Positions 8,713-19,399 of a DNA stretch of 64,000 bases are shown here, in pieces. Location: assembly GCA_965219955.1 (NCBI GenBank), contig OZ244799.1, positions 512,001-576,000 of the forward strand. Direction: 5' to 3'. Source of the stretch: a bacterium. Lineage in GTDB: Bacteria; UBA8248. Within the stretch, counting starts at the first letter, position 1; each line of letters begins with the position of its first letter. A model generated the notes under the pieces. It saw only the letters and a program-made list of their open reading frames with translations, had not been told where the DNA came from and ran no database searches. The translations under genes were made by a program, and so were the position numbers.

Positions 8713-9645
8713 CTAGAATCGATAGCGTATCCCCAACTCGAAAAGATGAATCCGCAAATCTGTCGTCGCCCTGACCGACGCACTCCTGTCGGCACTCGTG
8801 GCGGTGAACTCGAACTCGCTGGTTTGCTGGTAGCGGTAGCCCAGCTGAAAAGTAATGGCGTCCGAATACTGGTAGCCTATTCCCATGCCGAACTGATAGA
8901 CCACCCCCGAGTCGGCGCCTCTGACGTCGGGTATGGACCCCGGCGGCACGGCGGCCTGGGCCCCCAGAATAGCCTGCTGCCGGGCTTGTTCTATGGCTTG
9001 TGGAGGCGTGCCCGGAGGCAGGTTTCCCAACACGGTCGCCACCGCCACCGCCTCGGCAATCGCCAGTGCGGGCCCCCGGGGGTCATACTCCAGGTCGCCC
9101 TGATCGACCCGAATGAAGCCGAGGCCGCCGCCGATATAGGGTTTCCAGCGGGAAGCGGTGCTGATGTCGTACCAGAGGTTCACCGTGGTGCCGAACTGGC
9201 TGGCCGGGCCGGAGACCGGGATGTCCCTCGGCGGAACATCGAGGCCTGGCAACAAGGGACTGGAGATTCCGGTGTACGTCAGTTTGTCGACCTCGGACTT
9301 TCCGTAGAACACCTCGCCCTCGACGCGCAGACCCGAGTCGAATCTCCGGCCCAGGGCGCCGCTGATCCGGAACCCCGTTGCGTACGAGTTGGTGGCCGTC
9401 GAAGTGTAGGGGACTGGTATTGGTGATGGCGCGATAGCGGCTTCGCCGGCGGAGACGCTCACCGAGTCGTCGATGAACATGACCGGCACGTTGAAGCTCA
9501 TGTACCATTTCGAACCCTGAGTTTCCGCGCCTGAATCCGCGGCGCGCGCATCGGGCGTGAACGCCGGGAGGAGGAACACGGCAAGAATTACCGCCGTAAA
9601 GATCATCCGGTTACGAGTGTTTTCCCGGTGTGAAATCAGTCTCAT
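8713..9645 (-). CDS. Small outer-membrane beta-barrel protein (Opa/Msp2/OmpA-TM-like) with long insert loops
   Basis: Signal peptide; GLRVEGE, NLWYDI, KPYIGGGLG, YQFGMGIGY; C-terminal ELGIRYRF beta-signal. Confidence 0.82.
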   Translation of the reverse strand: MRLISHRENTRNRMIFTAVILAVFLLPAFTPDARAADSGAETQGSKWYMSFNVPVMFIDDSVSVSAGEAAIAPSPIPVPYTSTATNSYATGFRISGALGRRFDSGLRVEGEVFYGKSEVDKLTYTGISSPLLPGLDVPPRDIPVSGPASQFGTTVNLWYDISTASRWKPYIGGGLGFIRVDQGDLEYDPRGPALAIAEAVAVATVLGNLPPGTPPQAIEQARQQAILGAQAAVPPGSIPDVRGADSGVVYQFGMGIGYQYSDAITFQLGYRYQQTSEFEFTATSADRSASVRATTDLRIHLFELGIRYRF

Positions 9646-10129: not shown

Positions 10130-10281
10130 GATCTCACTTTGGTTCACTGTTGCGACCGCCCGGGCGTCATGGACTTCCACCGCGCAAGCCGCGTTGCGAT
10201 GCTCGGGATTCGCAACCAGTTCACAACCGCCCCCGGAACCGGCGGGTACGCTGCGGCTATACGCCGCCGTATAGCGAGGCC

Positions 10282-12567
10282 ATGATGTCCGCACCTCTGA
10301 ACCGCTATATTGCGTTCATGTTGCGCCGCAGACGGCTGGTCCTCGCGGCGAGCGTAGCGGTCATGCTGATACTGGCGGTCGGCCTCCGCACCATCGTCAT
10401 CTCCAACGACTGGCGCGACATGCTGGACGAGGGCAATCCCCAACTCGTCGCGTTCGACGCCATGGAGGCCACCTATTCGGCGACCAATGCGGCGGTGATC
10501 GCAGTCGCGCCCAAGGGGGGGGCGGTGTTCACCCGCGAGGCGCTCGGCGCCGTCGAGGAGTTGACCGAAGCCGCCTGGCGCGTGCCCAGGGCCATACGGG
10601 TCGACTCCATTACGAACTATAACCACACGGAGGCGGAAGAGGACGACTTGATCGTGGAGCGCCTCGTGGACGACGCGGGATCACTCAGCGATGCGGATCT
10701 CAAGCGGATCGAGAAGATCGCGCTGAGCGAGAGCAGCATCGTGGGCCGTCTCGTCTCGGGAGACGGGCGCGTTGCCGGGCTGGTCATCAGTTTCGCCTTG
10801 CCCGAGCGTTCGGACGCCGCGGAGATCCGGATTTACAACCATATCCGCGGCCTCCTTGAAAAATCCCGGAAGGCCCACCCGGACATCGAATACCACGTGA
10901 CCGGCAACGTCTTCGTGAACCAGGTCCTGACGGAAGCGGCCCAGGACGATATGGGGATCCTCGCGCCCGCGGCGTTCTTCATCATCATAGCCGTCGCCGC
11001 CATTCTGCTGCGCTCCCTGTTCGGCACGCTGTCCCTCGTCGCCGTGGTCATCTTCACCGTCATCTCGACCATGGGCGTCATCGGCTGGATCGGCCTGGTG
11101 CTCAACGCGGCCAACTCCAGCGTTCCCCTCATCATCATGACGCTCGCCATCGCGCACTCGGTCCACGTCGTCGAGTCGATCATTTCAGGCATGAGGGGAG
11201 GGCTGGACAGGGACGCCGCGATCGCCGGGTCGATGCGCGACAATGCCTGGCCCGTGTTCCTGACGACGGCCACGACGATGATCGGGTTCTTCAGCATGAA
11301 CGCCTCGGACTCTCCGCCTTTCCGGATCCTCGGCAACCTGGTGGCGTTCGGCATGCTGTGCGCCTACGCCTATTCCATGACGCTTCTGCCGGCGCTGCTG
11401 TCGGTCCTGCCGTTGCGCGCGCGTCCGGCGGGCGCCGTGGGTTCGGGCCTCTTCGACCGGCTCGGCGCCTTCGTCGTCGCGCGCCGCGCGCTCCTGCTCT
11501 GGGCCCTGGCCGCCGTTGCGATCGCGCTCGTGGCGGGCGTGCCCCGCGTCGAACTGACGGACAACTGGACGCAGCATCTGGATAAGCGTTACGAGTTCCG
11601 GCGCGACACGGATTTCGTCATCGAGAACCTGACCGGCGTGGAAACCCTGGAGTACTCCCTGGACTCCGGGCGCGAAGGCGGCATTACCGATCCCGGGTAT
11701 CTTCGCAAGGTCGAAGCCTTCGCCGATTGGTACCGCGCCCAGCCGGAAGTGGCGCACGTCCAGGTGTTTACGAACATCATGAAGCGCCTCAACAAGAACA
11801 TGAACGGCGATAATCCCGCCTTCTACCGGCTGCCGGAAAACTCCCGGCTCGCCGCGCAGTATCTGCTGCTCTACGAGCTTTCGGTCCCCTTCGGCATGGA
11901 CCTCAACAACCGCATCAACATCGCCAAATCCGCGACGCGCATGACCGTCACGCTCAAGAGGCTCAAGTCCGAGGAGCTGCGCGCGCTGGAAGCGCGCGGG
12001 CAGAAATGGCTCAGCGCCAACGCGCCCGACCTCGCGAAAGAGGCGTCGGGTTACAGCCTCATCTTCGCCCATCTGGCCATTCAGAACACCTTGAGCATGT
12101 TGTGGGGCACGCTCACCGGCATGATCCTCATTTCGCTGATCCTGATCGGGATTTTCAAGAGCCTGCGCCTCGGCCTCATCAGCCTCGTGCCCAACCTCAT
12201 CCCCGCGGCCATGGCCTTCGGCGTCTGGGGTTATCTGTACAGCGAGGTGGGGCCCGCCGGCTCTCTCGTGACCGCCATCGCCTTCGGCATCGTCGTCGAC
12301 GACACGATTCACTTCATGAGCAAGTATCTGAAGTCGCGCCGGGATGGTCATTCGGCATCCGAGGCGGTGCGCGCCACCTTCCGTTCGGTAGGCTTTGCGC
12401 TGTTCTCTACGACCTCGATCCTGGTGCTGGGCTTCCTGGTATTCGCCACGTCGGGATTCGCGATCACCTGGATGCTCGGCCTCCTGGTGGCGCTCACGCT
12501 TAGCTTCGCGCTGATCCTGGATTTGCTGCTCCTCCCGCCCCTGCTGATAGCCCTCGACCGGAAGTAA
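10282..12567 (+). CDS. MMPL/RND-superfamily lipid transporter
   Basis: About 761 aa with two repeats of TM-periplasmic domain-5TM. Motifs LAIAHSVH and IAFGIVVDDTIHF; C-terminal LLLLPPLL. Confidence 0.9.
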   Translation: MMSAPLNRYIAFMLRRRRLVLAASVAVMLILAVGLRTIVISNDWRDMLDEGNPQLVAFDAMEATYSATNAAVIAVAPKGGAVFTREALGAVEELTEAAWRVPRAIRVDSITNYNHTEAEEDDLIVERLVDDAGSLSDADLKRIEKIALSESSIVGRLVSGDGRVAGLVISFALPERSDAAEIRIYNHIRGLLEKSRKAHPDIEYHVTGNVFVNQVLTEAAQDDMGILAPAAFFIIIAVAAILLRSLFGTLSLVAVVIFTVISTMGVIGWIGLVLNAANSSVPLIIMTLAIAHSVHVVESIISGMRGGLDRDAAIAGSMRDNAWPVFLTTATTMIGFFSMNASDSPPFRILGNLVAFGMLCAYAYSMTLLPALLSVLPLRARPAGAVGSGLFDRLGAFVVARRALLLWALAAVAIALVAGVPRVELTDNWTQHLDKRYEFRRDTDFVIENLTGVETLEYSLDSGREGGITDPGYLRKVEAFADWYRAQPEVAHVQVFTNIMKRLNKNMNGDNPAFYRLPENSRLAAQYLLLYELSVPFGMDLNNRINIAKSATRMTVTLKRLKSEELRALEARGQKWLSANAPDLAKEASGYSLIFAHLAIQNTLSMLWGTLTGMILISLILIGIFKSLRLGLISLVPNLIPAAMAFGVWGYLYSEVGPAGSLVTAIAFGIVVDDTIHFMSKYLKSRRDGHSASEAVRATFRSVGFALFSTTSILVLGFLVFATSGFAITWMLGLLVALTLSFALILDLLLLPPLLIALDRK

Positions 12568-12700: not shown

Positions 12701-13732
12701 ATGACATCCAAACCCAGGCTCACCGACATCCTGAAAGACGCAAAAACCGGTGACCGCGTTGCCTCTGGCATCCAGGAATATGACCGGCGCTACGGCGGCG
12801 CGGAACGCGGCGGCCTGGACGAGCGCAAGACGGACTACCTGGACTTCGAGAGAAGCTATTACAATCTGGTCACCGATTTCTTCGAGTACGGCTGGGGCCG
12901 GTCCTTCCATTTCGCGCCGCGCGTCGAAGGGGAGAGCTTCGCCGCCTCGCTCGCGCGTCACGAGCACTACATGGCGCACAGGCTGAATCTCCGGCCCGGA
13001 ATGGTGGCGGTGGACCTGGGCTGCGGCGTCGGCGGCCCGTTGCGCGAGATCGCACGCTTCTCGGGCGCGAAAATCGTCGGCGTCAACATCAACGAATACC
13101 AGTTGAAGCGCGCCGCAGAGCTGACGGAAGCGGAGCATCTAAGCCACCTGGCCGAATACCTGAACTGCGATTTCATGCGCGTCGATGCACCGGATGCCAG
13201 CTTCGACGCCGCCTATTCCATCGAGGCGACCTGCTGCGCGCCGGACAAGGCCGGCGTCTATGCCGAGGCGTTCCGCCTGCTCAAGCCCGGGGCTCTTCTC
13301 GGGGTCTACGAATACTGTATGACCGACCTTTTCGACGCGCAGAATCCCGGGCACCTGAAGCTCAAGGCCGATATGGAGCATAGCGGCGCACTGCCCGATA
13401 TCGCCCGGCCGCAAGAAGTCGACGACGCGGTTCGACAGGCAGGTTTCGAACTGCTCGAAGCGTGCGACCTCGCCGCCGAGGCACCGCCGGGGGTTCCCTG
13501 GCACCAGCCGCTGGTCGGCTCCGGCCTGTCCCTGGCGAGTTTCCGCTCCTCGGCGCTCGGGCGCCGGCTGACGCACAGCACGCTCTGGCTGCTCGAGCGG
13601 CTGGGAATCGTGCCGCGCGGGACGACCAGGGTGTCGAGCCTGCTGAACTTCGCCGCCGTCACCTTCGCCGAAGCCGGCCGCCTCGGTATTTTCACCCCGA
13701 TGTATTTCATACTCGCCCGCAAGCCGGAGTAG
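12701..13732 (+). CDS. Sterol 24-C-methyltransferase (ERG6/SMT family)
   Basis: All four SMT signature regions are present: YYNLVTDFFEYGWGRSFHFAP, DLGCGVGGPLREIARFSG, YSIEATCCAP and EAFRLLKPG. The sterol-MT C-terminus GRLGIFTPMYFILARKP is also present. Confidence 0.92.
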   Translation: MTSKPRLTDILKDAKTGDRVASGIQEYDRRYGGAERGGLDERKTDYLDFERSYYNLVTDFFEYGWGRSFHFAPRVEGESFAASLARHEHYMAHRLNLRPGMVAVDLGCGVGGPLREIARFSGAKIVGVNINEYQLKRAAELTEAEHLSHLAEYLNCDFMRVDAPDASFDAAYSIEATCCAPDKAGVYAEAFRLLKPGALLGVYEYCMTDLFDAQNPGHLKLKADMEHSGALPDIARPQEVDDAVRQAGFELLEACDLAAEAPPGVPWHQPLVGSGLSLASFRSSALGRRLTHSTLWLLERLGIVPRGTTRVSSLLNFAAVTFAEAGRLGIFTPMYFILARKPE

Positions 13733-13890
13733 GGAGGGGGTGCTGGGGAAGTGTTGATTTCGTGATTCGGCGTATGGAGCCGACCGGGGAGGGGCGGCTT
13801 CTTTGCGAAGCGGACGCCTCTTGCGGTTTTCGTATAACGCCCTCCTGAACCGAAGCGGGTATGGATTTCGCAGTCCGCAGGAAGCGTGTC

Positions 13891-14631
13891 ATGAACAAGT
13901 TCATATTATTCACTTGCCTGACGATTGCGTGCGCGTTCGCGCCGGCGAGGAATGCCTGCGCGCAGTCGATAGAAGAAGCGCGCGCCGCGTATGCCGAGGG
14001 CCGCTTCGTGGAGGCGGCCGAGCTCGCCCGTGCGCTCGGCACTTCCGAAGGCTATACGCTGGCCGCCGATTCACTGGCGATTCATGGCTACTACATGGCG
14101 CCGGAGGGCGAAAAGGAGGGCTTGTTCAAGCGGGCGGAGGAGTCCGCGCGAAAGGCGATCCGGCTCGACGCGGCCAGCCCCGAGGCCCATCTCCAGTTGG
14201 CCCACGCCATGGGCCGCCAGGCGCAGGTGAGCGGTGCGCTCAAGGCGTTGAAAGAGGGCTATGCAACCAAGGTGCGCGATGCGATTGAAGAGGCGCTTCG
14301 GCTGGCCCCGGACTCGGCATCCGCCCACGTCAGCCTGGGCGCCTGGCATGCGGGCGCCGTCGGCGCAGGCGGATTCTTCGCCGGTCTGCTCTACGGGGCG
14401 AGCGCAGAGGACGCTCACGCCCATTTCGAGCGGGCGCTCGAATTGGCGCCTCGGGACAAGGTGGCGCTTTTCGAATACGCGCTTGGTTTGCTGAGCCTGG
14501 ATGCCGATGAGAACCGCGCGAAGGCGCGCGACCTGCTCGAGCGTGCGATAAAATTGCCGCCGAAAAACGCCTTTGAGCGGCTGATTCACCAAAAAGCGGT
14601 CGAGCGGCTCGCGGCTATAAGCGGTGGATAG
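13891..14631 (+). CDS. Secreted TPR-like helical repeat protein
   Basis: Signal peptide MNKFILFTCLTIACAFAPARNACAQ, followed by TPR-like repeats (ARKAIRLDAASPEAHLQLA, EEALRLAPDSASAHVSLG, FERALELAPRD). Confidence 0.8.
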   Translation: MNKFILFTCLTIACAFAPARNACAQSIEEARAAYAEGRFVEAAELARALGTSEGYTLAADSLAIHGYYMAPEGEKEGLFKRAEESARKAIRLDAASPEAHLQLAHAMGRQAQVSGALKALKEGYATKVRDAIEEALRLAPDSASAHVSLGAWHAGAVGAGGFFAGLLYGASAEDAHAHFERALELAPRDKVALFEYALGLLSLDADENRAKARDLLERAIKLPPKNAFERLIHQKAVERLAAISGG

Positions 14632-15005: not shown

Positions 15006-15112
15006 GCGCTTGGTCGGCTTTCTGCCGCGGCGGCCTGAGCGACACAGTCCCGCCTATTGGAAGCTTCCTGGAGCCATATACTCCTACACCCTGGCTTGGG
15101 GTGCGTTGTTCG

Positions 15113-17170
15113 ATGAGACTGATCGAAGAAATCATACTCCTGCTGCTGAACGAGGAGAGCGGCTATCTCGAACAGGTGGCAGGCTGGAATCTCTCGTGCG
15201 TTCTCGCCGGCGCCGTACTGGCGGACCTCGACCTCGAATCCCGCATCGACACCGCGCACGAGACACTCAAGCTGGACGATTCGACACCTGTGGGAGACGA
15301 CCTCCTCGACCCCGTACTGGCGACCATCGTCCGCGATCCCGAACCACGCAGCGTAAGCTACTGGGTCGAGAAAATCGCCGTCACGTCGGACGAGATACTG
15401 GATCAGGCTCTCGAACGGCTGGTGGAAAACGGGATTCTGGACCATTCGATCGGCGGCTTCTGGTCTCTCTCGCGAAACGCCGCGAATGCCGCCTACAGCA
15501 TGTCCAGCGGCGAGTCCCGGGCGAAAATCCGCCGGCGAATCGTCGATACGATACTCGAGGACGACATCCCCGACCCCCGTGACGCCATTATCATCGGCCT
15601 CGCCAATTCCTGCGACGCGTTCAGGTTTCTCCTGCAGCCGGAAGACTACGAGGCTTCACGCGAACGTATCGAGCTGTTCAGCATGCTGGACCGCATCAGC
15701 CGATCCGTCGCCACCGCCGTCGCGGCGACATCGGTCCGCCGCACCATCAAGACGGCGACGAAGCCCATTCCCGACATCAGCTTATGGAAACTGCTCCGCA
15801 AGGATTCGTTCTGGCAGGGAAATATGTCCAGGATAACGGCCGACCTCTACCGCGACTACGGCCCTGTATTCGCGATCAAGGCTCCCTTCTCCCAAAAGAG
15901 AATCTTCGTCATCGCCGGGAACAAGGCCAACATCTGGGTCAACCGGCGCGGACGGATGTACCTGCGGTCGAAGGATTACATTTCGGGTCTGGAGGAAGCG
16001 CTCGGCGTATCCAGAAGCCTGCCGGGCATGGACGGGGCCGAACACTACCGCATGCGCAAGGCGCAGTACACGGCCTTCACCAAGGGCCGCCTGAACGAAC
16101 GTCTCGACGAACTGCTGCATGAGGTTCGTGTGGGCCTGGATTCGTGGAAAGAGGGCGACGTGCTCATCGCCCGTGACGCGATCCGCAGGCTGATGGCCCG
16201 GCAGGTCACCCAGCTCTCGGTCAGCCTGGACCTTTCGGAATACATGGACGACATCCTCAGCTACAAGAACCGCATGTTGATCACCCACGTGCAAAAGGCC
16301 TTGCCGAAGTTTTTTCTGAAAACACCGAAAATGGCCGCCAAGGGACGGCGCATCGACCAGGTCTACGCCATGATCCGGAACACGCACACGCCGGGGCAGC
16401 GGGAGAACAAGCCGCGCGACCTGATCGACGACCTGCTCAGCCTGCACGCCAGCGACCCGCAGTATTTTCCGGAGGCCGATCACAAGTTTCCGATGATCAT
16501 GGCGTTCGTCGCGTCCATGTACATGGGCACCGCCCTCGCGTTCGCGGTCTTTGAAATGTATTCCAACCCGGACCTCCTTCAGCGCGTCCGCGAGGAAGCC
16601 GAGGCGCTGTTCGCGAACGGAGAACCGGGACCCGAGGACTTCACCGACGAGGCCATGGACACCACCCACAGGCTGGTCCTCGAGGCGCTTCGGGTCTATC
16701 CCAGCGTACCCGTGCAGATGAGAAACGTCATGAACCCCTGCGTCGTGGAGGGTTATGAAATTCCCCTCGGCTCACGCATCATCATGGCGATGACGGCCGT
16801 TCATTACCTGGAGGAGAACTATCCGGATCCGCTTAAGTTCGACATCGACCGGCATCTTCCCGGACGCGAGGAGACCAGGAAACACGGCGCATTCGGGACA
16901 TACGGTTTGGGGACGCACACCTGCCTCGGCGCAAGGGTGGTGGAATATCAGATGACTATCAACCTGATGATGATCGCCTACCACTTCGACCTCGAAGTGA
17001 TGCCCTCGAGCTACCCGATCAAAATCAATCCGTTCCCGACCTGCACCCCTCGCAAGAGCCTCAAGCTGCTGGTCAAGTCGAAGCGGCCGGTCACCCCGAG
17101 CGGCCAGGCGGACGCCTCGGGCGACCAGGCGGGCGCCGCGAGCGAGCGTAAGGTCGCCCTGCATTCCTGA
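15113..17170 (+). CDS. Cytochrome P450 with an N-terminal GPP34 (GOLPH3/Vps74-like) domain
   Basis: The first ~210 aa (MRLIEEIILLLLNEESG...LAGAVLADLDLESRID...GDDLLDPVL...LERLVENGIL...DPRDAIIIGL) match the bacterial GPP34 pattern. The C-terminal part has ExxR (EALR), meander PDPLKFDIDR and heme motif YGLGTHTCLG. Confidence 0.85.
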   Translation: MRLIEEIILLLLNEESGYLEQVAGWNLSCVLAGAVLADLDLESRIDTAHETLKLDDSTPVGDDLLDPVLATIVRDPEPRSVSYWVEKIAVTSDEILDQALERLVENGILDHSIGGFWSLSRNAANAAYSMSSGESRAKIRRRIVDTILEDDIPDPRDAIIIGLANSCDAFRFLLQPEDYEASRERIELFSMLDRISRSVATAVAATSVRRTIKTATKPIPDISLWKLLRKDSFWQGNMSRITADLYRDYGPVFAIKAPFSQKRIFVIAGNKANIWVNRRGRMYLRSKDYISGLEEALGVSRSLPGMDGAEHYRMRKAQYTAFTKGRLNERLDELLHEVRVGLDSWKEGDVLIARDAIRRLMARQVTQLSVSLDLSEYMDDILSYKNRMLITHVQKALPKFFLKTPKMAAKGRRIDQVYAMIRNTHTPGQRENKPRDLIDDLLSLHASDPQYFPEADHKFPMIMAFVASMYMGTALAFAVFEMYSNPDLLQRVREEAEALFANGEPGPEDFTDEAMDTTHRLVLEALRVYPSVPVQMRNVMNPCVVEGYEIPLGSRIIMAMTAVHYLEENYPDPLKFDIDRHLPGREETRKHGAFGTYGLGTHTCLGARVVEYQMTINLMMIAYHFDLEVMPSSYPIKINPFPTCTPRKSLKLLVKSKRPVTPSGQADASGDQAGAASERKVALHS

Positions 17171-17324: not shown

Positions 17325-18581
17325 CTAGAAATTGTACGTCACGTTCAGGGCCACGAAGCTGTCCCGCCTCGTGTCGTAGATGATGTCCTCCTCGCCCACG
17401 TCCATGAAAACAATCGATTCCAGCTTCATCGACCACTGGTCCGAGAGGCGCCGTCTCAGTTCGAAGCTCATGGTGCGCGTGGAATGGTCCGCGTCCGCGA
17501 GAACCCCGGCGATGATCTCCGTGCTCTGGGCGTCGTTGAGCCCGAGTCGAACGGCGAAGAAGAGGTCGTTCTGGAACTCGGAGTTCGAACGCTCGCGGCG
17601 CTCGTCGTAATTCCATTCGGCGAGCAGGCCGAGGTCGGCGGCCGAGCCGAAAACGGCGTTGAAGGTGTACTCCCCCCCGATGACGAAAGCGGCGAAATCC
17701 TCTTCCATTCCCAGGAGGTTCCGCGCGCCTTCGCGGTGAATGGCTTCGAGCTTGAGCAGCCAGGCCTCCAGTGTGAGCTGGGCGTCCACGCTGACCTGAA
17801 AGATTGGTTCGTAGCGCTGGCGCAGGCTCAGCGCGCCGCGCTCGTCGAAGTGCGGTGTGACGAACGGCTCCCGGCTGGTGCCGTCGAATACGCTGAGCCC
17901 TAAGTCGAAAGGCCCGAAGCTGTGGCTGTAGCGGGCGGCGAGGTCCACGCGCCACTCCCCGGCTGCGCTTTCGTAGGAGACGTGCTCGTCGTCTATGACG
18001 ATCGCGGAGCGCAGGCGGCCGTGAAGGCCCGGGTAGGTGCGCGCGCGGTGATAAGTGAGGGCGAAGAACTCCAGGATGCCCCACTCCGCCGACCAGGTGA
18101 GGTGGGCCATGGGCTGGCCCAGCTTGCTTTCCTTGTTGGGATGCTCGACGAGGTCGGTCTGATTGATGATGTCGACCAGGTGCTGCGATTCGGTGACGCC
18201 CCAGAACACGCGGTCCACGCCCAGGCGCAGCTCCCATTCCCCGTCGCCGGCCTCACCGAACATGAGAAGATAGGCTTCGCGCAAATCGGCGCGGGTGCGG
18301 CGCGAGTCCGCGCCGTCGTAGCGGAAAAACGGCGCGACCGTGAAACTCCAGTTCCCCCCGCTTTCGAGATGGAGTTTCGGCTCAACGGCCAAACCGCTCA
18401 CGTGCGCGCGCTGGTCGGGATGGGCGTTAAGCTGGGGATACCACCGGCCGTCGACGTCCAGGCTGCCGGAAAACTCGTGCTCGATGCTTTCGGCCCCGTG
18501 GCTGGCACCTGCGATAAGGAAAACGGTCAGGATGGCGACGGCGGCCAGCACCGCGCGGTGAAAAGCGGCGCGCATCGGCAT
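17325..18581 (-). CDS. Putative outer-membrane beta-barrel protein (partner of the LolA-like protein)
   Basis: Signal peptide; DLREAY, LRLGVDRVFWGVTES motifs; alternating beta-strand pattern; C-terminal VTYNF. Translationally coupled to the upstream gene. Confidence 0.8.
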   Translation of the reverse strand: MPMRAAFHRAVLAAVAILTVFLIAGASHGAESIEHEFSGSLDVDGRWYPQLNAHPDQRAHVSGLAVEPKLHLESGGNWSFTVAPFFRYDGADSRRTRADLREAYLLMFGEAGDGEWELRLGVDRVFWGVTESQHLVDIINQTDLVEHPNKESKLGQPMAHLTWSAEWGILEFFALTYHRARTYPGLHGRLRSAIVIDDEHVSYESAAGEWRVDLAARYSHSFGPFDLGLSVFDGTSREPFVTPHFDERGALSLRQRYEPIFQVSVDAQLTLEAWLLKLEAIHREGARNLLGMEEDFAAFVIGGEYTFNAVFGSAADLGLLAEWNYDERRERSNSEFQNDLFFAVRLGLNDAQSTEIIAGVLADADHSTRTMSFELRRRLSDQWSMKLESIVFMDVGEEDIIYDTRRDSFVALNVTYNF

Positions 18582-19399
18582 CAGCGCACCCGTTTCAGCC
18601 CGGTCCGGGTGAATTCGCTGGCTTTGAGCTTGATGCGGAACTTGTAGTTGTTCCAGCGCAGCACGGTGCTCTTGCCCGTGAGGTGGTTCACCATGTTCAT
18701 CTCTTGCGACTGCCAGTACTTGCCCAGATACTTCTTGTAATTCCCTAAAGTGAGCGTCTTCAGGTGCGAGTTCTTCCGGTCGTAGTACTGCACCTTCCAG
18801 GCGCGGAGCTCGCTCTTGTCCTGCCAGATGATCTGGCGCCTGTAGCCCGAGCGCTTGTTCGTCGGGAAGCGCTCGACGACCGTGCAGGTCAGCTTGCCGC
18901 AGGGCTCGTCGCGCAGGTAGCGGTAGGTGAACTTCTCCACCTCCTGGGTGCCCATGTCCTCATAGGCGAACTCGCTGCCCATGAAGGAGCCGGATTGGTT
19001 CGAGGAGCTGATGCGCTTGACCCGCTTGAGAGCGGGCAGGTAGAGCCACTGGTCGTCGTTTTTCTTCTTGTGGGTGTGGACGAGCAGGGCGGTTCCTCTC
19101 ACGTCGCGCGGACGGTCGAAGACGAACAGGCTCTTGTTGCCGCCTCCGTCCGTCTCGAGCACCTTCACGCGCAGCTGGCGCTTGCTCTCCTGGCCGTGCT
19201 TGTTGCGCAGCACCATGGACTGCTCGGCCGTGAAGTTTCCGAAACCCTTGGCTTTCTCGCGGGTATCGCGCGCGATCTGGAGGCCTTTCTCCTCGGGCGT
19301 CGCGCCCTCTGCGTGAGGCGGCGCAAGCGGATGAACCAGAACGCAGGCGCAGATCGCGAGAAGCGGGAGAGTCGTTCGGACGAGATGAGCGTGCATCAT
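18581..19399 (-). CDS. Outer-membrane lipoprotein-sorting (LolA-like) periplasmic protein
   Basis: PRDVRGTALL, DDQWLYLPALKRVKRISS and SFMGSEFAYEDM are hallmark motifs of this family. Confidence 0.9.
   Translation of the reverse strand: MMHAHLVRTTLPLLAICACVLVHPLAPPHAEGATPEEKGLQIARDTREKAKGFGNFTAEQSMVLRNKHGQESKRQLRVKVLETDGGGNKSLFVFDRPRDVRGTALLVHTHKKKNDDQWLYLPALKRVKRISSSNQSGSFMGSEFAYEDMGTQEVEKFTYRYLRDEPCGKLTCTVVERFPTNKRSGYRRQIIWQDKSELRAWKVQYYDRKNSHLKTLTLGNYKKYLGKYWQSQEMNMVNHLTGKSTVLRWNNYKFRIKLKASEFTRTGLKRVR

Follow-up and report, generated by a model that had tools for sequence, protein, structure and literature searches.

A sterol C-24 methyltransferase homologue with clade-typical residues at two signature positions, in a bacterial genome in which no squalene epoxidase or cyclase was found

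Steranes with alkylated side chains, and 24-isopropylcholestane in particular, serve as evidence for early animals, and bacteria that make their precursors bear on that evidence. Brown et al. 2023 (PMC10070321) report that 20 out of 24 metagenomic bacterial sterol C-24 methyltransferases (SMTs) alkylated desmosterol, and that 24-isopropyl sterols were made by three SMTs, all of symbionts. Here we describe a homologue, SMT_A, which is encoded in a stretch of 64,000 nucleotides from a bacterium of the lineage UBA8248 (assembly GCA_965219955.1, contig OZ244799.1, positions 512,001 to 576,000); we call this whole stretch the window. A sequence-only reading of the window had pointed out a Phe in Region I (DFFEYGWG) and a Cys in Region III (IEATCCAP) of SMT_A, and had proposed that the enzyme may alkylate the sterol side chain iteratively.

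The residues that govern the number of methyl transfers are the subject of a preprint by Brown & Welander (bioRxiv 10.64898/2025.12.19.695621). Its introduction, citing Nes et al. 1999, states that yeast Erg6 gains a second methyl transfer with Y81F, in agreement with the sequence-only reading; T219L and G218L are also among the Erg6 mutations with such a gain. In a bacterial propylating SMT given desmosterol, C30 products made up 27% of the resulting sterols before the change Y81F and 73% after it, and F83Y lowers the C30 output of a bacterial SMT. Gly249 alone among the residues is reported to be required for propylation, without being sufficient. Among the assayed enzymes with Phe at 81 and/or 83 together with Gly249, propylation is seen in four and the addition of one or two carbons in three, and one is inactive; one assayed F81 enzyme gives 24-methyl sterols only. 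Natural F81/G249 variants of sponge-symbiont SMTs have thus already been assayed and mutated, and SMT_A adds no new principle to them.

SMT_A matches two Pfam models over their curated cut-offs, Sterol_MT_C (PF08498, E 1.3e-22, residues 280-343) and Methyltransf_11 (PF08241, E 1.3e-17), the latter a class I S-adenosylmethionine (SAM) methyltransferase domain. In a scan against NCBIfam no model reached its cut-off, and a sequence search of the PDB returned no SMT structure, the best matches being unrelated small-molecule methyltransferases (E about 1e-19). Erg6 positions were assigned by a motif offset of 20, not by alignment to Erg6 itself, using the motifs 84GWGxxFHF91 and 125DxGxGxxGP133 and the residues E195 and G217 given in the preprint. 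By this numbering SMT_A has GWGxxFHF of Region I, DxGxGxxGP of Region II, E195 of Region III and G217 of Region IV, and it has 25 out of the 25 residues that the preprint lists as conserved in functional SMTs. With Saccharomyces cerevisiae Erg6 and plant SMT1/SMT2 it has Regions I-IV and the equivalents of H90, D125, G129, P133 and E195 in common, and it differs from them at Y81, where it has F, at H199 (C) and at D/N249 (G); it also has L at Erg6 position 219 and A at position 218.

The two motifs are exactly as the sequence-only reading had given them, in residues as well as in coordinates: DFFEYGWG starts at residue 59 (TTC at 12881-12883), and IEATCCAP, within YSIEATCCAP, starts at residue 174 (TGC at 13235-13237). 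The combination of Tyr81 and His199 that is canonical for the Erg6/SMT family is not present in SMT_A, which has F61 and C179. Since neither position is among the 25 conserved residues, F61 and C179 do not bar it from the family. On balance, we favour the view that SMT_A is an intact SAM-dependent sterol side-chain (C-24/C-28) methyltransferase of a known clade, with residue states that are ordinary for this clade, and that it is likely to act on an acquired sterol.

How ordinary these states are depends on the set of sequences that is considered. Among 150 diverse representatives at 50% identity, which are about 35-48% identical to SMT_A, position 81 is Y in 106 and F in 11, and position 199 is H in 119, Y in 10 and C in 8. 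SMT_A and the 120 closest clusters at 90% identity (n = 121; the nearest cluster representative is 93% identical) have F in 67 and Y in 51 at position 81, C in 100 and H in 19 at position 199, and G in 112 at position 249. We also collected residue triplets for positions 81, 199 and 249 from loci in species-representative genomes and Joint Genome Institute (JGI) metagenomes, dropping 10 of 160 with truncated or stop-containing matches. The 85 loci with at least 56% identity include (Y,C,G) 33 times, (F,C,G) 24 times and (Y,H,G) 16 times, and 61 of the 65 remoter loci are (Y,H,N/D).

The same picture is obtained from a FastTree phylogeny of 380 rows, in which the three trait columns were omitted. 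The clade into which SMT_A falls comprises 209 rows and has an SH-like support of 96; 193 of its rows have G249, 164 have C199 and 93 have F81. The minimum numbers of changes on this tree are 36 between Y and F at position 81, 16 between H and C at position 199 and 5 between G and N/D at position 249; many branches outside the clade are long, so that these counts are approximate. Position 199 is unchanged in about 21 of 24 independent pairs with different residues at position 81, and a coupling of F81 with C199 is therefore unsupported.

Judging from these alignments, F81 and C199 are rare in the family as a whole and ordinary, repeatedly switched states within the clade, rather than private substitutions of SMT_A. 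The sequence-only reading was right that SMT_A departs from the canonical motifs; the residues are not special to SMT_A. By the same comparison, the hallmark of this large clade of bacterial sequences, mainly from sponge and marine metagenomes, is Gly at Erg6 position 249 (G229 in SMT_A), a residue that the sequence-only reading had missed. Among the 150 diverse representatives this column is N in 68, D in 30 and G in 11, which fits the preprint's description of G249D as a change "to the yeast residue".

The Phe and Cys codons could in principle have been assembly errors, in which case the substitutions would be void. We compared the SMT_A gene with Logan contigs from four runs. Contigs of run X1, possibly the source run, are identical to it. 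Runs X5 (a marine metagenome) and X6 (a sponge metagenome), which belong to two other studies, gave one whole-gene contig each, with 17 differences each, and none of the listed differences falls on 12881-12883, 13235-13237 or 13385-13387. The 16 transcribed differences per contig lead to 6 and 4 amino-acid changes, respectively, none of them at residues 61, 179 or 229. A locus from a metagenome-assembled genome (MAG), L026, which is 96% identical and fully syntenic, has DFFEYGWG and IEATCCAP as well. Together, the X5 and X6 contigs and this locus rule out an assembly error at the two codons. The low amount of amino-acid change in two independent full-length contigs fits purifying selection on the gene.

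In an RNA library (run X20) three short contigs with 92-97% identity cover parts of the gene, and the C179 codon is not among their listed differences either. We do not take them as evidence for transcription, as they could come from a relative or from carried-over DNA. The match in L026 (10001-10678, single frame) stops at residue 226, and this record may contain a frameshift or an indel from the assembly. Other contigs in X1 and X5, with a word depth of 100-367, match only the motif stretches 12878-12922 and 13222-13250 of the window, and the target organism's own contig in these runs has a depth of 7-10; more abundant SMT-bearing organisms are therefore present in the same samples.

We asked what the residues imply for the product. 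One possibility is that F61 and C179 change the function and turn SMT_A into an iterative alkylator that makes C29 and C30 (24-ethyl and 24-isopropyl) sterols. In support of this, Y81F leads to a second methylation in Erg6 and to more C30 in a bacterial SMT, SMT_A also carries G249 and the full set of 25 conserved residues, and four of the seven active assayed enzymes with F81/83 and G249 propylate. The last figure is biased, because it was this same small set of enzymes that supplied the residues used for prediction. On the other side, C179 does not appear to be meaningful: H199 is not in the preprint's list of 25 conserved residues, most of the clade has C at this position, and in open-access papers and bioRxiv we found no work in which "H199" is mentioned together with sterol methyltransferase or Erg6. 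F61 cannot be used as diagnostic in view of at least 36 switches between Y and F on the tree and of the F81 enzyme that yields only 24-methyl sterols. The two states are typical of the clade, labile, and do not switch together, and SMT_A has Ala at position 243. We thus consider it unlikely that these two substitutions define an iterative enzyme; the Y81F data speak for iterative alkylation, whereas F81 and C199 alone are not sufficient to infer it.

By the published criteria SMT_A is nevertheless a fair candidate for C29/C30 products that is worth testing, although its product cannot be called from the sequence. It has the Phe at 81 and/or 83 that is seen in propylating SMTs (F61, with Y63) and the necessary Gly249 (G229). 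Iterative alkylation is a fair hypothesis for such an enzyme, and not a new one. We would put the addition of two or more carbons by SMT_A at slightly better than an even chance, and we are rather doubtful that it makes detectable C30 sterols. Both estimates are our judgement from small published counts and were not computed.

The closest assayed enzymes are SMTs from sponge metagenomes, such as "Aplysina aerophoba meta JGIcombinedJ30088_10000835" and "Sarcotragus foetidus meta LXNI01016685", which have the same Pfam architecture as SMT_A. They share with it G249, F at 81 and/or 83 and the origin from a sponge or marine metagenome. LXNI01016685 (our locus L095) belongs to the same G249 clade, is 60% identical to SMT_A and has F81/H199/G249, that is, H199 instead of C199. 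In the metagenome scan it is the sole relative that is tied by name to a published assay.

That the substrate is likely to be an acquired sterol is suggested by the genome. The window is part of a single contig of 4.28 Mb, in which we found no match to cyclase (PF13243, PF13249) or squalene epoxidase (PF08491) models. A tblastn search of it with four epoxidase-cyclase fusion proteins from congeners gave no hit at E <= 1e-5, and neither ERG2 nor a 3-beta-HSD-like gene of a congener gave a hit by tblastn. An ERG4/ERG24 homologue is present in the genome (Table 1). The combination of squalene epoxidase and oxidosqualene cyclase that marks a de novo sterol cluster was thus not seen in this genome. 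There are three Sterol_MT_C matches, SMT_A and the paralogues SMT_B and SMT_C (Table 1). SMT_B is canonical (Y81, H199, N249), and SMT_C is degenerate: Ala replaces G84, Gly replaces E195, and His and Met stand at the two Phe of FHF. SMT_B and SMT_C are spaced 5.5 kb apart, and no sterol genes were seen among the ten adjacent ORFs (open reading frames) scanned.

Table 1. Features of the window and of related loci. Coordinates without a prefix are those of the window; the others carry the label of the contig or locus.
Feature	Location	Strand	Remarks
SMT_A, sterol C-24 methyltransferase homologue	12701..13732	+	ATG-start ORF, 343 aa; Pfam
F61, Erg6 position 81, Region I	12881..12883	+	codon TTC
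C179, Erg6 position 199, Region III	13235..13237	+	codon TGC
G229, Erg6 position 249, reported necessary for 24-isopropyl products	13385..13387	+	codon GGC
KshA-like Rieske oxygenase, 351 aa	7569..8627	-	Pfam Rieske and KshA_C; PDB KshA E 1.5e-23
Outer-membrane beta-barrel protein (OMP)	8713..9645	-	Pfam OMP_b-brl 8.3e-10; congeners 48-51% identity
RND/MMPL (HAE3-type) transporter with sterol-sensing match	10150..12567	+	Pfam MMPL 3.8e-31, Sterol-sensing 3.2e-07
TPR protein, 256 aa, hydrophobic N-terminus	13861..14631	+	Pfam TPR families; congeners 80-89%
GPP34 (residues 7-209) and cytochrome P450 (229-655) fusion, 689 aa	15101..17170	+	Pfam GPP34 1.5e-30, p450 4.7e-38
Conserved 417-aa protein	17325..18581	-	86-91% identical in congener clusters
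LolA-like periplasmic lipid/lipoprotein carrier	18581..19399	-	Pfam LolA_like 4.5e-60; congeners 87-89%
SMT_B, paralogue	G000:C1:2282049-2283143	-	Sterol_MT_C
SMT_C, paralogue	G000:C1:2276433-2277590	-	Sterol_MT_C
NUDIX and two SQS_PSY domains, 719 aa	L176:8549-10705	-	G000:C1 about 2.055-2.059 Mb
Flavin amine oxidoreductase, next after NUDIX/SQS_PSY fusion	L176:7193-8545	-	
ERG4/ERG24-family reductase homologue	L177:8433-9566	+	E 3.7e-33
Class I methyltransferase, 344 aa, divergent partner of ERG4/ERG24 homologue	L177:7428-8459	-	
Squalene epoxidase-oxidosqualene cyclase fusion, 1189 aa, congener G011	L170:6036-9602	-	
GPP34-P450 fusion in the de novo sterol cluster of congener G011	L170:15431-17518		

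Since no epoxidase or cyclase was found and transporter and oxygenase genes are neighbours of SMT_A, we regard an imported sterol of host or community origin as the likeliest substrate, rather than one made de novo. By homology, SMT_A would bind SAM via the DxGxGxxGP loop and attack a delta-24 sterol at the double bond in its side chain, and the 24-methyl(ene) product would be released. The roomier pocket that F81 and G249 may provide could let this product re-enter, giving 24-ethyl and possibly 24-isopropyl sterols.

A precedent for an SMT without the rest of the pathway is an enzyme labelled "Chlamydiae sp., drinking water MAG", from a bacterium with no other de novo sterol genes, for which the modification of host-acquired sterols has been proposed (PMC10070321). 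The two genomes are alike in that an SMT is found without a de novo pathway. The Chlamydiae SMT differs from SMT_A in having Y81/F83 and E243 and in coming from another phylum, and the sections of PMC10070321 considered here describe no transporter/oxygenase cluster for it, whereas SMT_A has one.

Several observations weigh against our reading. The preprint reports that only 4 of 10 further SMTs tested in 2025 (nine carrying G249 and one gapped at this position) were active, and LXNI01016685, the 60% identical relative, was inactive in vitro. SMT_A has Ala instead of Glu at Erg6 position 243 (A223), and E243A cut the C30 fraction of the Chlamydiae SMT from 27% to 2%; the same Ala is found in 94 of the 121 closest sequences. 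Among the nine residues that can be mapped from the preprint's "propylator-enriched" list, SMT_A has only three (G249, E350 and F362), and E350 and F362 are invariant among its close relatives. The genome is estimated to be 94% complete and its contig ends without a terminal overlap, so that the case for a missing cyclase is strong without being proven. Finally, the gene cluster around SMT_A occurs together with a cyclase in two congeners, and the cluster alone therefore does not imply import.

A genome without a detected cyclase or epoxidase might also use its SMT on an isoprenoid of its own making that is not a sterol, for example squalene. An enzyme of this kind would presumably resemble the SMT-like triterpene methyltransferases of Botryococcus. 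The genome does encode what looks like a squalene route of the HpnCDE kind, that is, a fused HpnC/HpnD (the NUDIX/SQS_PSY protein) followed by HpnE (the amine oxidoreductase). We consider methylation of squalene to be very unlikely, since tested bacterial SMTs, sponge-metagenome enzymes among them, take desmosterol, the sterol-binding residues of Region I are all retained in SMT_A, and its neighbours are a transporter with a sterol-sensing domain, a KshA-like oxygenase and a P450 that is also part of a congener's de novo sterol cluster.

The genus offers another explanation for an SMT without a pathway. In 18 other species of the genus, an SMT is found in 9 and a cyclase in 4. The cyclases are fused to squalene epoxidase (G011, G005, G013 and G016); fused SMO/OSC proteins already appear in the Methods of Brown et al. 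2023 (PMC10070321). In G011 the fusion gene adjoins ERG2, ERG4/24, Rieske/VanA_C and 3-beta-HSD-like genes, two SMTs and a GPP34-P450 fusion. SMT_A could thus be a relic of a lost sterol pathway that has no physiological substrate left, given that the fusion is present in four of the 18 congeners and none was found in its own genome, and that neither E195 nor G84 survives in the paralogue SMT_C. This, too, seems highly improbable to us: the reading frame is intact and has 25 out of 25 key residues, two independent contigs show mostly synonymous differences, and the eight genes of the cluster have 71-97% protein identity in congeners with or without a cyclase (a range that excludes the OMP, at 48-51%, and one P450, at 44%). 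The contigs of a near relative in a sponge RNA library are only a weak hint in the same direction.

The reading of SMT_A as a modifier of acquired sterol brings its neighbourhood into view. The eight genes (Rieske, OMP, RND, SMT, TPR, GPP34-P450, the unknown 417-aa protein and LolA) occur together in the congeners G003, G013 and G016. In related loci across phyla, genes of the same kinds lie beside an SMT in 14 of 80 loci for Rieske, 13 for P450, 9 for RND, 7 for LolA and 6 for TPR, and 12 of the 80 loci (L009-L088) have a contiguous GPP34-P450 fusion gene within 10 kb of the SMT. We take this as suggesting that the cluster serves the tailoring of imported sterols.

For the single genes, the RND transporter (about 90% identity in congeners) is assigned to HAE3 in NCBIfam (2.2e-43), with just 60 bits to HpnN against a cut-off of 752; the first TTG is probably not its true start, which would lie downstream. 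The TPR protein is probably exported, as far as its sequence tells, and the 417-aa protein has no match to a Pfam or NCBIfam family. Three closer assignments were considered. The Rieske protein is not an SdmA orthologue, reaching 39.6 bits with NF052579 against a cut-off of 600 and in the Rieske domain only; the TPR protein has no sequence match to a BstC entry in the PDB; and the best PDB matches of the P450 include CYP51 only as a distant one (E about 1e-18).

In kind, though not by orthology, the cluster resembles the sdmAB-bstABC operon of Methylococcus capsulatus, in which an MMPL/RND transporter and a TPR-like protein are found beside sterol-modifying enzymes (Zhai et al. 2024, PMC10942540). 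It is unlike that operon in that it has a KshA-like Rieske protein rather than SdmA, and LolA-like and OMP genes instead of a PBP of the BstB type, which was not seen. Compared with M. capsulatus, the genome that carries SMT_A also stands apart in that no cyclase was found in it.

The fusion protein at 15101-17170 has exactly the two-domain architecture of GPP34_L (GPP34 plus P450), which has been described as exclusive to sponge symbionts and for which a role in the evasion of phagocytosis has been proposed (Microbiome 2025, PMC11706023). The text of that paper, as far as it was searched, does not mention sterol, steroid or methyltransferase. Up to now the fusion has been treated solely as a symbiosis factor; here the gene sits in sterol gene clusters. 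Because it lies near an SMT in 12 of 80 loci and inside the de novo sterol cluster of a congener, we suggest that the GPP34-P450 fusion acts in a sterol pathway.

Taken furthest, these observations could describe an uncultured sponge-associated bacterium that is unable to cyclise squalene, imports sterols of the host or community by means of the RND, LolA-like, OMP and TPR proteins, and remodels them with the KshA-like oxygenase, the GPP34-P450 and an SMT of the G249/F81 type that adds two or three carbons. We put this forward very tentatively, as it is improbable that every part of it holds. If it were true, 24-ethyl and 24-isopropyl sterols of sponges could be bacterial, made from host sterols without a bacterial de novo pathway, and the GPP34-P450 proteins held to be exclusive to sponge symbionts would be sterol enzymes rather than factors for the evasion of phagocytosis. 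What makes the locus a test case for the alkylation of host sterols by symbionts is a near-complete genome with three SMTs, no cyclase found, and a conserved cluster of transporters and oxygenases. What is new and, in our view, most useful is that three SMT paralogues apparently stand without a de novo pathway, and that GPP34-P450 is placed in sterol clusters.

Relatives of SMT_A are widespread. There are at least 536 of them in species-representative genomes (of 598 pattern matches listed). By their MAG labels, the best 80 come from Alphaproteobacteria, Binatia, Nitrospirales, Chloroflexota/Dehalococcoidia, Gemmatimonadetes, Acidimicrobiia, Acidobacteria and others, and the named cluster members include MAGs of Nitrospinota, Rhodospirillales, Gemmatimonadota and Dadabacteria. 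Runs that contain at least half of the sampled words of the gene are labelled as marine or sponge metagenomes, except for X1-X4, which have a coded organism label and may be the source; runs X11-X19, with small shares, were not counted as evidence for a habitat. The isoleucyl-tRNA synthetase encoded in the window is, among named hits, nearest to MAGs of Nitrospinota (76-78%) and Tectomicrobia (73-75%).

Two further observations concern other parts of the window and the genome. On the minus strand of the window, at 3-2657, lies an open-ended ORF (at least 885 aa) that has five SWM_repeat units and a Big_5 domain and belongs to a large surface-repeat protein. Two adjacent ORFs of a congener (124 aa, and 317 aa with a YAcAr/SLOG domain) have at least three hits each in the genome with 87-95% identity, near positions 1867362, 2602478, 2776042, 2787378 and 3702106 of G000:C1. 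One pair of hits is adjacent, near 2.787 Mb, and the whole looks like a multi-copy, possibly mobile, element.

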